Positions 1 to 57,995 of a stretch of 64,000 nucleotides of DNA are shown here, one piece after another. The stretch's first letter is position 1; each line of letters starts with the position of its first letter. The position numbers and the translations under genes are program-made. The notes beneath the pieces were generated by a model. That model was not told where the DNA came from. It saw only the letters and a program-made list of their open reading frames with translations, and made no database searches. The stretch lies in NCBI RefSeq assembly GCF_053078305.1, contig NZ_CP166879.1. One strand, given 5' to 3'.

Positions 1-505
1 AAAACTCGGGCAGGAAACCGTCAAAATCGACCATCAGCACGCGCTGGTATCCCGCTTGTAACAGGCTAAGCACTTCACACAAACCTTGCTGGAAAGTGTC
101 GCGACCAGCAGAAAGCGATGACGAAACGATCGGCTGTTTGGCCGCAATGGTCAGGTTACCCACGGAAGAGTTGTGTACTGAAAGTGCAAAGTCGGTCGGA
201 GAAAGCGCCTGTTCGGTTGCCAGTGCATGAACAATGCGGTAATTGCGCTCCAGTTCGCCATGACGACTGGTATACAAAACGGCGTCTGGCTGATGGCGGC
301 GTAGCATTGCCAGACCGCATTCAACAGCCAGTTTGCTGCCTGAACTGAGGCGGCGGGCGGTCATCATTGGCAGTTCACTTAATTTTGCCAACGGCGCGGC
401 AGGGTCAATCGCCCACGGCTGGCGCGACCATGCTTGCCATTGCTGCGCTTCGCTAAGTCCAGGCGCCAGTGCCTGCCAGTCGGTAATATTTAATGTAAAT
501 TTCAT
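1..505 (-). CDS. Partial CDS (N-terminal 168 codons, continues beyond window start): ketosynthase/chain-length-factor-like protein of a fatty-acid/polyketide-type accessory cluster
   Basis: Reverse-strand translation from ATG at 505 gives MKFTLNITDWQALAPGLSEAQQWQAWSRQPWAIDPAAPLAKLSELPMMTARRLSSGSKLAVECGL... with no stop before position 1. Family assignment is by resemblance only. The two forward-strand ORFs in the track (118-348, 333-524) are treated as antisense artefacts. Confidence 0.5.
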   Translation of the reverse strand, partial: MKFTLNITDWQALAPGLSEAQQWQAWSRQPWAIDPAAPLAKLSELPMMTARRLSSGSKLAVECGLAMLRRHQPDAVLYTSRHGELERNYRIVHALATEQALSPTDFALSVHNSSVGNLTIAAKQPIVSSSLSAGRDTFQQGLCEVLSLLQAGYQRVLMVDFDGFLPEF

Positions 506-545
506 CAACGCGCGCCCGCGGTAAACCAAAATTATTAAGTGACGA

Positions 546-1613
546 TTATTTCTTTTGGCATATCAAAAGTGTATGCCCAACGCCTAAATTATCGTGGCGC
601 TCTGCTACCTGGAATCCTGCTTTATTCAGATAGTCGTAAAATTTCTCTGCACTATAGAAACGGCTGTTACCGTTTGCCATGCAGGTAAAATAAAGTGAGG
701 ACGCGTTCAGGCTAAACGATGCTGCTTCAAACCGCTGCGCATCCCAGAACAACTCCATGATGCAAACTTTTGCGCCAGGCTTCATTACGCTGGCAATTTT
801 GCTGAGTATGCTAATTATTTGTTCGGGTGAAAAACAGTCTAAAAATTGGCTCATCCACCAGATATCAGCCTCGCCCGGTAATGGGGCATCGCTTAGCATA
901 TCCACCGCATGGAAATCTATGCGATCAGAAAAACCTGCATTCGCGATATTTTCTTTCGCTAGTACGATTTGTTGTGGCAGATCTAATAACGTCACGGCGA
1001 TGTTTTCATTGTATTTGCAGCAACGCAAAGCCCACTTACCCGTATTGCCGCCTACATCGTACAATGTTGTGGGGTTGTTGGCGAATACATAAGGCAGTGC
1101 GGCGTTAAATGCGCCATCTGAATAGTAATGATCAAACGCAAACCAGCTTTCACGAGCGGCGTCTGGTAATTGCGAAAGTGCCGGATATATCGTCGACCAG
1201 TCGCCAAATACTTTTAACCCGGAAGGTTTTCCTTCATTGAGTGAATCGGCGAGGAAGAAGAGCCCCTGGTAACAGACATCCTGGGTGAAATCCATATTCA
1301 CGCGAGTCATAGTGTCATGCAGGAGGTAATGACCGATTTTCGCCAGGTAATAAATTCCCTCTTTACAGGTAATAATTCGCCCGCTTAAGCCCATATCTAA
1401 CAGAACGCTGGCAGCATATTCGTTGATATGGCTATGTTCGGTGATATCAGCCAGCGTTGCGCCATGTTTGCCTTGCCGATCCAGATATGAAAGTACACCC
1501 GCATTACGTAGGCAGAGTGCTGTTTGAAAAAGCATAGGGGCAAAGGCAATGCGTTGAGCTTCGGTAATCGCATCCAGTGCGCTAAGAGAATCCTGTTCGT
1601 ACATGTTGGGCAC
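546..1613 (-). CDS. Class I SAM-dependent (O-)methyltransferase-like protein; accessory relative to K-12
   Basis: 355-aa ORF with a glycine-rich SAM-binding motif I (LYDVGGNTGKWAL) and downstream acidic residue. It sits 40 bp upstream of the ketosynthase-like gene on the same strand. Start may be GTG at 1613 or ATG at 1604. Confidence 0.6.
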   Translation of the reverse strand: MPNMYEQDSLSALDAITEAQRIAFAPMLFQTALCLRNAGVLSYLDRQGKHGATLADITEHSHINEYAASVLLDMGLSGRIITCKEGIYYLAKIGHYLLHDTMTRVNMDFTQDVCYQGLFFLADSLNEGKPSGLKVFGDWSTIYPALSQLPDAARESWFAFDHYYSDGAFNAALPYVFANNPTTLYDVGGNTGKWALRCCKYNENIAVTLLDLPQQIVLAKENIANAGFSDRIDFHAVDMLSDAPLPGEADIWWMSQFLDCFSPEQIISILSKIASVMKPGAKVCIMELFWDAQRFEAASFSLNASSLYFTCMANGNSRFYSAEKFYDYLNKAGFQVAERHDNLGVGHTLLICQKK

Positions 1614-1672
1614 AACCTGTTAAGAGGGAATTAAATTATTATCGGACCGCAACGGCCCGACTTTAGGAGGAA

Positions 1673-2050
1673 TTATAAATCTGCGCCCGCTGACAAATTC
1701 AGTTGAATATCTTTGTCGAGATTGCGGACCCAGCGATTGTAGTTTTTATGAATTTGTCCGCCTGACGCTTGAAGGTTCTGGCTATTTTCATAATTGATAT
1801 CGTAGCTGGATGCCGTGTAGTTAATGCGTATTTCCGCTGAATGATCGCGTGACTGTTGACGTGCTTTAATTATGCCTTGTCCGGCTTCGGACATAATCCA
1901 TTTGCGTTCAACGCCAGCTTTCAGAATCGCTTTTTTCACTTGTTCCTGGGTATGACCAGCGCTGACGGTTGAGTGAACCTGATCAATTGGCGCAGTACGC
2001 GCGCAACCCGCTAAAGCACCCACAACAGCAATAGCCGCAAACCATTTCAT
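1673..2050 (-). CDS. Putative lipoprotein
   Basis: Trimmed to internal Met: MKWFAAIAVVGALAGC... has a signal peptide with lipobox LAGC. No recognised catalytic motif. Confidence 0.5.
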   Translation of the reverse strand: MKWFAAIAVVGALAGCARTAPIDQVHSTVSAGHTQEQVKKAILKAGVERKWIMSEAGQGIIKARQQSRDHSAEIRINYTASSYDINYENSQNLQASGGQIHKNYNRWVRNLDKDIQLNLSAGADL

Positions 2051-9745: not shown

Positions 9746-10105
9746 ATGAGCAAACCACCTCTTTTCTTTATTGTTATCATTGGCTTAATCATCGTCGCCG
9801 CATCGTTTCGTTTTATGCAACAGCGACGGGAAAAAGCTGATAATGATATGGCACCGCTCCAGCAAAAGCTGGTGGTGGTGAGCAACAAGCGGGAAAAACC
9901 GATTAACGATCGCCGTTCGCGCCAGCAGGAAGTGACTCCGGCAGGCACCAGTATACGCTATGAGGCAAGCTTCAAACCGCAAAGCGGAGGAATGGAGCAG
10001 ACGTTTCGCCTCGACGCCCAGCAGTACCACGCCCTGACAGTGGGCGATAAAGGTACGCTGAGCTATAAAGGAACGCGCTTTGTTAGCTTTGTTGGCGAAC
10101 AATAA
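9746..10105 (+). CDS. yhhM: DUF2500-type small membrane-anchored protein
   Basis: 119 aa with N-terminal TM helix (MSKPPLFFIVIIGLIIVAASF); synteny. Confidence 0.8.
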   Translation: MSKPPLFFIVIIGLIIVAASFRFMQQRREKADNDMAPLQQKLVVVSNKREKPINDRRSRQQEVTPAGTSIRYEASFKPQSGGMEQTFRLDAQQYHALTVGDKGTLSYKGTRFVSFVGEQ

Positions 10106-10107
10106 GG

Positions 10108-10377
10108 TTATTTTTTAACTTTAAATTTCTTCTGCCAGACCAGCAGTTCAAACACGCCGAAAAGGAAAATCCGCACCTTTTCGGCGGTGGTCATCTGCGG
10201 GCCATCTTTCGGTAAAGTGGATTTCAATAGCGCCAGCTGCATACCATGCATCAGCACGGTAAAAATCAGCGCCACGTTAACGAAAATATTCAGCGGGCGC
10301 GGGAAGGGATGCACCAGGTTGAGGATTAAAAATCCCCAAACGCAGAGCATTAACAAACGTCCAATATTAATCAGCAT
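10108..10377 (-). CDS. yhhL: DUF1145 small membrane protein
   Basis: Trimmed to internal Met (MLINIGRLLMLCVWGFLILNL...), 89 aa. Its 5' end overlaps the rsmD 3' end by 11 bp. Confidence 0.75.
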   Translation of the reverse strand: MLINIGRLLMLCVWGFLILNLVHPFPRPLNIFVNVALIFTVLMHGMQLALLKSTLPKDGPQMTTAEKVRIFLFGVFELLVWQKKFKVKK

Positions 10378-10963
10378 CACTTTCTCCTTGTGCTTCGCGT
10401 TGATACAGCCGATAAGCCACCTGACCCGCCACTTTTTCCCGATGCAATGACCAGTTTGCCGGAACAGTGGGCAGACCGTTTTCGACTTCGCTTTCGACAT
10501 AAATCAGGGCTTCGTCAGCCAGCCAGCCGTTATCTTCCAGTAAATTTATCGTCTCTTCTAACAAGCCACGGCGGAACGGTGGATCGACAAACACGATATT
10601 ATGCGGTGTGCCTTTTTGCGCCAGGAATGACATCGCGTTGCTGTTCACCACGCGTGCATTGCCTGCTTTTAGTGTCGCCAGATTCTTAATTAACTGCTGA
10701 GAAACCGCGCGATCCATCTCAATCAACGTGGCCCCCGCAGCGTAGCGCGATAACGCTTCCAGTCCCAGCGCGCCGCTTCCGGCGAAGCAATCCAGACATT
10801 GGGCGTCAACAATGACCGGAGCCAGCCAGTTAAACAACGTTTCGCGTACGCGGTCGGTGGTGGGGCGCAGACCTGGGCTATCAGGAACCGGGAGTTTACG
10901 GCCTCGCCACTGCCCGCCAATAATGCGGATTTGGCCGCTGCCGGAATGATTCGGTTTTTTCAT
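10367..10963 (-). CDS. rsmD: 16S rRNA (guanine966-N2)-methyltransferase
   Basis: 198 aa with SAM-binding LDCFAGSGALGLEA and DPPF motifs; divergent from ftsY. Confidence 0.93.
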   Translation of the reverse strand: MKKPNHSGSGQIRIIGGQWRGRKLPVPDSPGLRPTTDRVRETLFNWLAPVIVDAQCLDCFAGSGALGLEALSRYAAGATLIEMDRAVSQQLIKNLATLKAGNARVVNSNAMSFLAQKGTPHNIVFVDPPFRRGLLEETINLLEDNGWLADEALIYVESEVENGLPTVPANWSLHREKVAGQVAYRLYQREAQGESDAD

Positions 10964-11112
10964 GATAAATTGCTCAATCCGCCAGATAACACATACTTGC
11001 AGGCGGTGATGTGAATTAAGTTAAGTGATAGACTATTTCATCATTTTTTTAGCTGCTATGTACATAGCGTTAACGCTGTGCCATGAAGCAACAGCGAGGA
11101 GTGTAGTCGCAA

Positions 11113-28087: not shown

Positions 28088-28827
28088 GTAACTGGCCTTA
28101 TCCCCGCATCGTCGCACATCGTGGCGGCGGTAAGCTGGCCCCGGAAAACACCCTGGCAGCAATCGATGTGGGAGCAAAATACGGTCATAAGATGATCGAA
28201 TTTGACGCGAAGTTGTCGAAAGATGGCGAAATCTTCCTGCTCCATGACGACAATCTCGAACGTACCAGCAACGGCTGGGGCGTCGCGGGTGAACTGAACT
28301 GGCAGGATTTACTACGTGTGGATGCAGGCAGTTGGTACGGCAAAGCGTTTAAAGGTGAGCCGCTGCCGTTGCTTTCGCAGGTGGCGGAACGCTGTCGCGA
28401 ACATGGGATGATGGCGAATATCGAAATCAAACCCACCACTGGCACCGGGCCATTAACGGGCAAAATGGTGGCGCTGGCGGCACGCGAACTGTGGGCCGGT
28501 ATGACGCCGCCGCTACTGTCATCGTTTGAGATTGATGCTTTAGAAGCCGCACAACAGGCAGTACCAGAACTGCCGCGCGGTTTGTTGCTGGATGAGTGGC
28601 GCGACGACTGGCGAGAACTGACCGCGCGGCTGGGCTGCGTCTCTATTCATCTCAATTATAAATTGCTTGATAAAGCACGAGTGATGCAGTTGAAAGACGC
28701 CGGATTACGGATTCTGGTTTATACCGTCAATAAACCCCAGCGCGCGGCAGAGTTGCTGCGCTGGGGCGTGGATTGCATCTGTACCGATGCGATTGATGTG
28801 ATTGGTCCGAACTTTACGGCCCAATAG
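28084..28827 (+). CDS. ugpQ: Glycerophosphodiester phosphodiesterase
   Basis: 247 aa with the GDPD-family HRGG motif ([15 protein letters not shown]). Confidence 0.95.
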
Positions 28828-31890: not shown

Positions 31891-32385
31891 TTATGAACAA
31901 CTGTCCATGATTTCGTTTAAGAATGAAGAGAAATCACTAAACGAACTGAATATATTTTCTGTGCCAATATTATCTCTAATTTCAAAAAAGTTACTTTTAA
32001 TGTCATAAGTAAATATTGAAATGCTATCATCCCCGATCACTAACCGTTCTTGTAGATCAGGGTTTATGAAATCATCATTATTTCTATAAAATTCATTTAC
32101 GGCAAAAAGGTTTTTAACTGAAGGTTCTGGAATCGAGAGGCTAAATAATCGTAATCCATTAACTTCGAATCCATCCATTGCTCTTAAAAAAGTAAGATAA
32201 TCAGGTTGATTCTTAAAAAGAATACTAACTTCATTACATAACTTCTCCAGGCAATTAGTTGAATTAGAATTAAATTCTATTTGGATTATACTTTCAATAA
32301 ATGATTCCTTGAGCGGTGCTTCAAATGGATAGTCTAAATCATTCATCATTTTTATTAATTTGTTTATTTGGGTTTTAGTCATCAT
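31891..32385 (-). CDS. yrhA: Putative immunity protein for the upstream Hcp-HNH toxin (intact yrhA-like gene)
   Basis: 164-aa acidic protein whose start sits in an ATGATGA overlap with the yhhZ stop, indicating translational coupling. AT-rich. Calling it the intact counterpart of the K-12 yrhA pseudogene is from memory. Confidence 0.65.
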   Translation of the reverse strand: MMTKTQINKLIKMMNDLDYPFEAPLKESFIESIIQIEFNSNSTNCLEKLCNEVSILFKNQPDYLTFLRAMDGFEVNGLRLFSLSIPEPSVKNLFAVNEFYRNNDDFINPDLQERLVIGDDSISIFTYDIKSNFFEIRDNIGTENIFSSFSDFSSFLNEIMDSCS

Positions 32386-33560
32386 TTTGTGGGTTCCATA
32401 ATATTTTTCATGGGAGGATAAATTGAGCCAGATGGAATGGCCCAGGGAGTGATTTTGCTTTCACCTACTAATATTCCCTTAGCTATTCGTGATTGCATGT
32501 TAGTAAAAACTTTATGATATGGTTCGTTTTCGATTAATACTAAATTTTCGAAATCATTAGTACCACCATCATCTAGAGATAGTTTATGGTGAACATTATA
32601 ATTTAGAGGAACATAGCCCTTTCTCATTCTTAAAAGGTCTTCGGTGTTGAATCTTCCAGATGCTTCGGAGGTTTTTGCAAGTTTGATAAGAAAATTTTTT
32701 CTTACAGTTTTGTTAAACTCCTTTCGTAAGTTAGCTAAGTCTTTTGAAGGTCTCTTAATGTATATTATTTCTATTATGTCTATGCCATCAAGAAGTTTTT
32801 GTTGACCTCTAAGTTTGCCTAAGTAACTATTTATTTCTGTATATGTATCAACTTTAGAACGCTTTGTTAAAAGAATAGATGCTGTTGCTATCGCTATGCC
32901 CGCTGTTTTTTCATTTAGTATTTGATCATAGCCTTTGATTGCATCTCCACCCAGTTTTTCCGCAGTATCTCTGAAACCTTCAATGTTCCCATTGTATACG
33001 CCACCAGCAGCAAGTAGCCTGCCAACAGCTTTGCTGTTTAACGTTTTGAAACGATTATTTGTTTGGTTTTTTGAATTTGGTAAAAACAAACGGTTATAAT
33101 TTTCAGGGAGTGCCAAATAGCTGAACTCGGTATTTGCGATAAGATGTTGACAGAGGATAAATTCATAACTAACAGTTATTGTTTCTGTATCCAGTTGATT
33201 TTCAATGATCTGATGATGAATAGCCGATAAAAAAGCGCCTCTTAGTTGTATATAATAATACTTTTCCCATCTGCCAAATCTATTGATTCTATAAAAGTCA
33301 AATTCCATAAATAATTGCTCATTATTGTTAATGGAATTAATAAGTAATGGAGTGCTTTTATCAATTAATTTACAAAATGTTATACCCTGTAACTGTGAAC
33401 CAAGCCCCGTATTAGTAATGCTATTTGCGAGTGAGAATGTAAATATTTCATTCTCATGCCCGCTCTGCCAGCGATTACCTATAGATTCAGTAGTCCCACA
33501 ACCTGCGGAGATGCTTCCTTGTTGTTCTCCCGTTACTGTCAGGTAAACAATATTACTCAT
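32382..33560 (-). CDS. yhhZ: Orphan T6SS Hcp-family protein with a C-terminal HNH-type nuclease toxin domain (Hcp-ET type)
   Basis: 392 aa. The N-terminal roughly 130 aa resemble Hcp. The C-terminus carries an HNH signature (NYNVHHKLSLDDGGTNDFENLVLIENEPYHKVF). AT-rich composition. Confidence 0.8.
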   Translation of the reverse strand: MSNIVYLTVTGEQQGSISAGCGTTESIGNRWQSGHENEIFTFSLANSITNTGLGSQLQGITFCKLIDKSTPLLINSINNNEQLFMEFDFYRINRFGRWEKYYYIQLRGAFLSAIHHQIIENQLDTETITVSYEFILCQHLIANTEFSYLALPENYNRLFLPNSKNQTNNRFKTLNSKAVGRLLAAGGVYNGNIEGFRDTAEKLGGDAIKGYDQILNEKTAGIAIATASILLTKRSKVDTYTEINSYLGKLRGQQKLLDGIDIIEIIYIKRPSKDLANLRKEFNKTVRKNFLIKLAKTSEASGRFNTEDLLRMRKGYVPLNYNVHHKLSLDDGGTNDFENLVLIENEPYHKVFTNMQSRIAKGILVGESKITPWAIPSGSIYPPMKNIMEPTK

Positions 33561-34407: not shown

Positions 34408-34497
34408 GCGATCAGGAAGACCCTCGCGGAGAACCTGAAAGCACGACATTGCTCACATTGCTTCCAGTATTACTTAGCCAGCCGGGTGCTGGCTTTT
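34408..34497 (+). ncRNA. ryhB: Iron-responsive small RNA RyhB
   Basis: GCGATCAGGAAGACCCTCGCGGAGAACCTGAAAGCACGACATTGCTCACATTGCTTCCAGTATTACTTAGCCAGCCGGGTGCTGGCTTTT matches the RyhB sequence as I recall it, ending in its intrinsic terminator hairpin plus U-run. Located between yhhY and yhhX as in K-12. Confidence 0.92.
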
Positions 34498-34619
34498 TTT
34501 TTGATCTTTCGTTCTCAATTTATCCTCGGGAAGTGCTTGTGTTCGTTATGCGCACTCCAGTAGGAACCACGTCCGCTTTGCGCTAAGGTGTAAATAACCA
34601 CCTTAAAAAGGACGAAATC

Positions 34620-57857: not shown

Positions 57858-57995
57858 AACGTGGCGCTTTGTTCATGCCTGATGCGGCGTGAACGCCTTA
57901 TCAGGCCTACAAAATCATGCAAATTCAACATATTGCATAAACCACGTAGGCCTGATAAGCGTAGCGCATCAGGCAATTTTGTGTTTGTCATCAGT
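57858..57995. repeat. REP/BIME palindromic units between the accessory module and glpD
   Basis: GCCTGATGCGGCGTGAACGCCTTATCAGGCCTACA and inverted TAGGCCTGATAAGCGTAGCGCATCAGGCA. Confidence 0.85.

Follow-up and report, generated by a model that had tools for sequence, protein, structure and literature searches.

Genes that overlap on one strand have been explained by a model in which the upstream gene extends to the next in-frame stop inside its downstream neighbour, and the 3n+2 length series (5, 8, 11, 14 ... nt) has been found to make up most long overlaps (PMC3887535). Co-directional pairs of this series resemble rsmD and yhhL of Escherichia coli in that both genes lie on one strand and are read in different frames, with the upstream stop placed within the first codons of the downstream gene. 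The rsmD stop also shifts between taxa, as the elongation model describes. Overlaps such as the 11 nt shared by rsmD and yhhL are rarer than the dominant overlaps of 4 nt and 1 nt. A second described group comprises pairs coupled in translation by termination and reinitiation, with junctions such as ATGA or TAATG (PMC6728339, PMC10666635 and PMC12548453). These have in common with rsmD–yhhL a stop and a start within the range of a ribosome footprint, a Shine–Dalgarno sequence inside the upstream gene and conserved adjacency; they differ in that the 11 nt of rsmD–yhhL exceed the well-studied coupled cases of −4 and −1, and in that the yhhL initiation region is unstructured and carries a strong Shine–Dalgarno sequence.

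We analysed a stretch of 64,000 nt, here called the window, that comes from another E. coli strain than K-12. The K-12 pair, rsmD (b3465, formerly yhhF) and yhhL (b3466), agrees with the pair in the window in its 11-nt overlap, its start and its products, and nothing of substance differs between them. A segment of 1,451 nt around the overlap is E. coli chromosome, 100% identical to NZ_CP049201 and found in 5,425 of 5,426 complete E. coli genomes, and the gene order is zntA, yhhN, yhhM, yhhL, rsmD, ftsY, ftsE, ftsX. In window numbering, the RefSeq/PGAP annotation of NZ_CP049201 (locus L083) places yhhL at 10108..10377 and rsmD at 10367..10963. K-12 MG1655 is annotated with the same 11-nt overlap (rsmD at 3604393..3604989 and yhhL at 3604979..3605248), as are four further E. 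coli genomes spread over the identity range, and the overlap was stated in Sergiev et al. 2012 (PMC3384335). It is the standard gene model, already annotated and known, and an ordinary kind of bacterial overlap. The features discussed below are as follows.

11015..10986, minus strand: reported sigma-70 promoter of rsmD–yhhL in the ftsY/rsmD divergent region, located in the window by the published hexamers (PMC3946193).
10963..10367, minus strand: rsmD, 198 aa, 16S rRNA m2G966 methyltransferase, with its TAA at 10369..10367 (ORF list, Pfam and RefSeq).
10500..10108, minus strand: 130-aa ORF from the six-frame ORF list, joining yhhL to an upstream ATG.
10500..10378, minus strand: spurious 41-codon N-terminal extension of the 130-aa ORF, an out-of-frame reading of the rsmD 3′ region.
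10389..10384, minus strand: Shine–Dalgarno sequence AAGGAG for yhhL, 6 nt before the ATG, within rsmD codons Gln192-Gly193-Glu194.
10380..10378, minus strand: in-frame GTG directly before the ATG, rejected as an alternative start.
10377..10108, minus strand: yhhL, 89 aa, a small hydrophobic DUF1145 protein, with ATG at 10377..10375 and TAA at 10110..10108 (Pfam PF06611, homologue N-termini, codon periodicity and RefSeq annotation).
10367..10377, minus strand: co-directional overlap of 11 nt, yhhL codons 1–4 (ATG CTG ATT AA.) lying over rsmD codons 196–198 and the stop (.AT GCT GAT TAA).
9746..10105, plus strand: yhhM (DUF2500), the convergent neighbour; its stop is 2 nt away from that of yhhL, and it bounds the 3′ end of the rsmD–yhhL unit.

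The preliminary description had placed the yhhL start inside the last rsmD codons, with an 11-nt overlap in different frames, and the sequence, the ORF list and the RefSeq coordinates all bear this out. The junction reads CAAGGAGAAAGTGATGCTGATTAATATT on the minus strand. In the rsmD frame it is ...CAA GGA GAA AGT GAT GCT GAT TAA (Q G E S D A D stop) and in the yhhL frame ATG CTG ATT AAT. Start lies 586 nt from start, and 586 mod 3 = 1, so the frames differ; with both genes on one strand, yhhL beginning before rsmD stops and a frame offset of 1, the two form a co-directional overlapping pair. Both are real genes rather than the product of a mis-called start, as judged by their Pfam matches (PF03602 at 214.9 bits and PF06611 at 91.8 bits), homologue N-termini, the Shine–Dalgarno sequence, in-frame stops and codon periodicity. 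The PF03602 (RsmD / Cons_hypoth95) match covers residues 12–188 of the 198 in the rsmD product, against a cut-off of 24 bits, and leaves the last 10 RsmD residues outside the domain. Within the first 50 kb of the window this is the longest co-directional overlap; the eight others are six of 4 nt, ftsE/ftsX (8 nt) and glgC/glgA (1 nt).

Six independent lines of evidence strongly support ATG 10377, and not ATG 10500, as the start of yhhL. When the DUF1145 profile was run on the 130-aa ORF (cut-off 21 bits), all 58 of its positions aligned with ORF residues 42–99, and profile position 1 fell on Met42, which is the yhhL ATG at 10377; the domain thus covers residues 1–58 of the 89-aa YhhL. Homologues are of matching size, nearly all of them 88–93 aa among the best 120 of 337 matches, and the N-termini of all 26 that were aligned read MLIN, MMLIN or MPLLIN. 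A profile search of 1.84 billion representatives returned only 109 DUF1145 relatives, of which the full-length ones align from residues 1–8, so the short N-terminus holds across the family. Two kinds of apparent exception were rejected. Longer YhhL ‘homologues’ of 103–156 aa proved on alignment to be C-terminal read-throughs or duplications, and not N-terminal extensions. A 254-aa protein (P0133) from the search of representatives that could pass for an RsmD–YhhL fusion shifts from RsmD into the out-of-frame extension, continues as YhhL and shifts again towards its C terminus; these two frame shifts mark it as a frameshifted or low-quality gene call and no natural fusion.

To compare the junction across genomes, we used 81 loci, made up of the window and 80 other genomes, almost all from Enterobacterales; in 46 of these loci the junction has the 11-nt geometry and the RsmD tail is colinear. 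The yhhL start codon is ATG in 80 of the 81. A purine-rich motif resembling a Shine–Dalgarno sequence precedes it in every locus, and takes the form AAGGAG at a distance of 6–7 nt in 49. The predicted anti-Shine–Dalgarno duplex is worth −8.5 kcal/mol at ATG 10377 (6-nt spacing) as against −1.5 kcal/mol at ATG 10500. Column entropies in the colinear loci, given for codon positions 1, 2 and 3, are 0.29, 0.15 and 1.08 when the sequence upstream of the ATG is read in the rsmD frame, and 0.44, 0.17 and 1.05 when the sequence after the ATG is read in the yhhL frame, so that third-position variation switches from one frame to the other at the ATG itself. The Shine–Dalgarno sequence constrains rsmD synonymous sites: the third positions at −8 and −11 have entropies of 0.35 and 0.79, compared with a mean of 1.08. 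Across the overlap, bases +0 to +10 are all invariant or nearly so, including the rsmD third positions (+1, +4, +7 and +10), which are invariant. This invariance may stem from selection on the junction itself as well as on YhhL residues 1–4. As for published initiation datasets, yhhL and rsmD are absent from the TRAINSPOTTER supplements, and the INRI-seq supplement holds yhhL only as a one-mismatch PNA off-target near the start (GAGAAAGTGA), which is not evidence of initiation.

The comparison also shows where the rsmD stop comes from. It is the TAA contained in ATT AAY, the codons for YhhL Ile3-Asn4. In the homologue alignment Asn4 is invariant and Ile3 nearly so, and because these residues are conserved as ATT AAY, a TAA is always available in that frame. 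This TAA ends rsmD in 58 of the 81 loci, namely those with an overlap of 11 nt (48 loci) or 17 nt (10 loci). Elsewhere the overlap is 7 nt (4 loci) or 1 nt (8 loci), the junction is 0 or −1 nt (2 loci), or the genes are separated by 10–11 nt (9 loci), and the loci with a gap keep the same yhhL Shine–Dalgarno sequence and ATG. The RsmD tail past about residue 190, after AYRLYxRE, varies in both length and composition, except for the Q-G-E/A that the Shine–Dalgarno sequence imposes. Two Citrobacter loci (L010 and L019) provide a natural experiment. In these the codon in the place of RsmD Gln192, roughly 16 nt before yhhL codon 2, is a stop (AAA TAA GGA GAA), which makes RsmD 7 residues shorter and turns the overlap into a 10-nt gap, with the yhhL Shine–Dalgarno sequence and ATG unchanged, which suggests that the RsmD tail is dispensable. 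The rsmD stop is drawn from yhhL codons, the RsmD tail is variable, and the spacing of the two genes runs from an overlap of 17 nt to a gap of 11 nt; on these grounds the overlap is best read as a by-product of a compact operon.

The two genes keep each other’s company well beyond E. coli. The ORF upstream of yhhL is an RsmD orthologue (68–100% identity) in all 81 loci, and a DUF1145 gene directly follows a Cons_hypoth95 gene in three of four distant representatives from metagenomes and other genomes. The junctions in those three are −4 (ATGA; L092, 2001–2004), +3 (L094, 1997–2001) and +11 (L088, 1453–1465); the fourth member (L090) lies elsewhere, flanked by genes for RNase T and RecX. In Shimada et al. 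2014 the pair appears as a single unit, ‘rsmD-yhhL’, with promoter hexamers TTCACA-18-TGTTAT (PMC3946193), and simple pattern scans on the yhhL strand returned no promoter-like or terminator-like site inside rsmD or between the two genes. Going by that literature table and these scans, rsmD and yhhL are probably carried on one mRNA.

We have high confidence in a reading that combines a compact rsmD–yhhL operon, a yhhL that begins at ATG 10377, mixed initiation, an overlap tolerated as a by-product of packing and a 130-aa ORF that is an artefact. The two genes would form a minus-strand operon transcribed from the promoter in the ftsY–rsmD divergent region, and yhhL would be translated from ATG 10377..10375 by means of the AAGGAG at 10389..10384 inside the last rsmD codons. 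As rsmD has no stop of its own before the yhhL start region, it reads through the yhhL ribosome-binding site and start codon and ends at the first in-frame stop, the TAA of the Ile3-Asn4 codons (ATT AAY); the result is 11 nt of overlap and an RsmD tail that is short and little constrained (...QGESDAD). Ribosomes would most likely reach the yhhL start by a mixture of routes: ordinary initiation directed by the Shine–Dalgarno sequence at a site free of structure and, in part, renewed initiation by ribosomes that terminate 8 nt downstream. The overlap would then be tolerated as a consequence of gene packing and would not be a dedicated regulatory device. Read in this manner, the pair is a clean textbook case of an upstream gene that has lost, or is without, a stop of its own and relies on one within conserved downstream codons, the price being a dispensable C-terminal tail.

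The strongest competing explanation, which we regard as possible though distinctly less likely, is that the overlap exists for coupling: yhhL would be translated mainly or only by ribosomes that finish rsmD at its TAA and then move back the 8 nt to the AUG, tying YhhL output to RsmD output. The stop and the start are indeed 8 nt apart, inside a single ribosome footprint, and such closeness is general, from the 11-nt overlap here to a range of −17 to +11 nt in all 81 loci and the three of four distant relatives in which the genes adjoin. In reporters, four of five overlapping E. coli pairs were strictly coupled, with a Shine–Dalgarno sequence often aiding reinitiation (PMC6728339). Set against this, yhhL has a strong Shine–Dalgarno sequence that is conserved, and its initiation region shows no more structure than shuffles of it do: a 110-nt fold around the start has a minimum free energy of −21.9 kcal/mol, compared with a shuffle mean of −26.0 (z = +1.33), and a fold at least this stable was reached by 187 of 200 shuffles. 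The same comparison of the 110-nt fold with 200 shuffles revealed no structure sequestering the yhhL Shine–Dalgarno sequence, so the sequestered downstream start that characterizes coupling by RNA unfolding is not what yhhL presents. In this it departs from the coupled E. coli pairs, most of which had structured initiation regions (PMC6728339). Nor is the length of the overlap conserved, with nine of the 81 loci having a 10–11-nt gap and the same Shine–Dalgarno sequence and ATG. Coupling also declines as the overlap grows from 4 to 25 nt, according to the summary of Tian and Salis given in PMC12548453.

The preliminary description took the overlap to imply translational coupling or reinitiation; from its geometry coupling of rsmD and yhhL is plausible, though the evidence does not require it. 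With a strong Shine–Dalgarno sequence and an unstructured initiation region, nothing is predicted to block independent initiation at yhhL, which on these sequence features is equally plausible. In the literature we found no published test of whether yhhL translation depends on that of rsmD.

A further proposal starts from the persistence of the tight rsmD–DUF1145 junction, and takes it to signify a functional partnership between the methyltransferase and the small membrane protein, enforced by translational coupling. Tightly coupled pairs have been reported to code, in many cases, for parts of a single complex (PMC10666635), and rsmD–yhhL was singled out as deserving a test by Sergiev et al. 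2012 (PMC3384335). If the partnership were true, it could mean stoichiometric co-production or the tethering of RsmD to the membrane. We consider it improbable.

Returning to the preferred reading and its start at ATG 10377, a start one codon earlier would give a 90-aa protein and a 14-nt overlap. The GTG at 10380..10378 is in frame and adjoins the ATG; Salmonella has ATGATG at this place, and its annotated proteins include some of 90 aa that begin MMLIN. Such a start would have a Shine–Dalgarno spacing of only 3 nt, compared with 6 nt for the ATG; the G at −3 occurs in only 8 of the 46 colinear loci, whereas the ATG is invariant; and the Pfam profile begins at the ATG. On this balance the GTG is a very unlikely start.

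The 130-aa ORF, whose product would include MSKAKSKTVCPLFR..., was already thought in the preliminary description to be the wrong model for yhhL, and we concur: the Pfam start at Met42, the homologue starts, upstream stops, the switch in periodicity and the want of a ribosome-binding site at the upstream ATG (−1.5 kcal/mol) leave next to no chance that YhhL itself, or an additional longer proteoform, is made from it. Its frame is open from 10500 to 10108 in both the window and K-12, but an in-frame stop lies within the 123 nt upstream of the yhhL start in 43 of the 81 loci, and in 19 of the 46 colinear ones. The nearest such stops fall 3–21 nt from the start, in Buttiauxella, Cedecea and others, and in-frame ATGs upstream of the start occupy scattered, non-homologous positions. 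In two divergent E. coli genomes (L084 and L002) the extension is interrupted by in-frame stops, and other E. coli strains have amino-acid changes in its frame while YhhL stays identical; the ORF is intact in typical strains only because their divergence is small. Variation upstream of the yhhL ATG peaks at the second codon position of the extension frame, and over the same bases in the 46 colinear loci the majority-residue fraction is 0.63 for the extension, as against 0.89 for the RsmD frame. The extension is present in none of the homologues, either in the alignment or in the family-wide profile search, and its 41 residues are strongly basic (11 K+R and 1 D+E), as expected of out-of-frame sequence. 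The first upstream in-frame stop lies at a median of about 120 nt from the yhhL start across the 81 loci and at 129 nt in E. coli, and there is nothing remarkable in about 42 codons that stay open out of frame. The 130-aa ORF is an artefact of this open stretch of rsmD. For annotation, the consequence is that the six-frame ORF is unfit as a model of yhhL; beyond correct annotation the overlap has little significance.

Several other features of the window were recorded in passing. At 10103–10110 the stops of yhhM (plus strand) and yhhL (minus strand) converge to within 2 nt (TAA GG TTA), and we found no terminator-like hairpin between them, so the 3′ ends of the two transcripts must overlap; the ExcludonFinder paper lists yhhL–yhhM among its convergent excludon candidates. 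Another convergent pair, ugpQ (plus strand) and yhhA (minus strand), has an annotated 3′-end overlap of 14 nt at 28814–28827. The tssD gene (32382–33560, minus strand), which overlaps the downstream yrhA by 4 nt, is annotated as an Hcp1 family type VI secretion system effector. At 392 aa its product far exceeds a plain Hcp; it resembles an Hcp extended at its C terminus, with no obvious type VI secretion system cluster nearby. At the edge of the window (1–2050, minus strand), annotated genes for a beta-ketoacyl synthase chain-length factor, a methyltransferase and a lipoprotein adjoin yhhT, and may be the border of a strain-variable biosynthetic cluster of lipid or polyketide type. Two small RNAs on the plus strand were matched in Rfam: ES036/CssrF at 57911–57953, a marginal match at 39.3 bits against a gathering score of 37.6, and RyhB at 34437–34501, at 83.1 bits.
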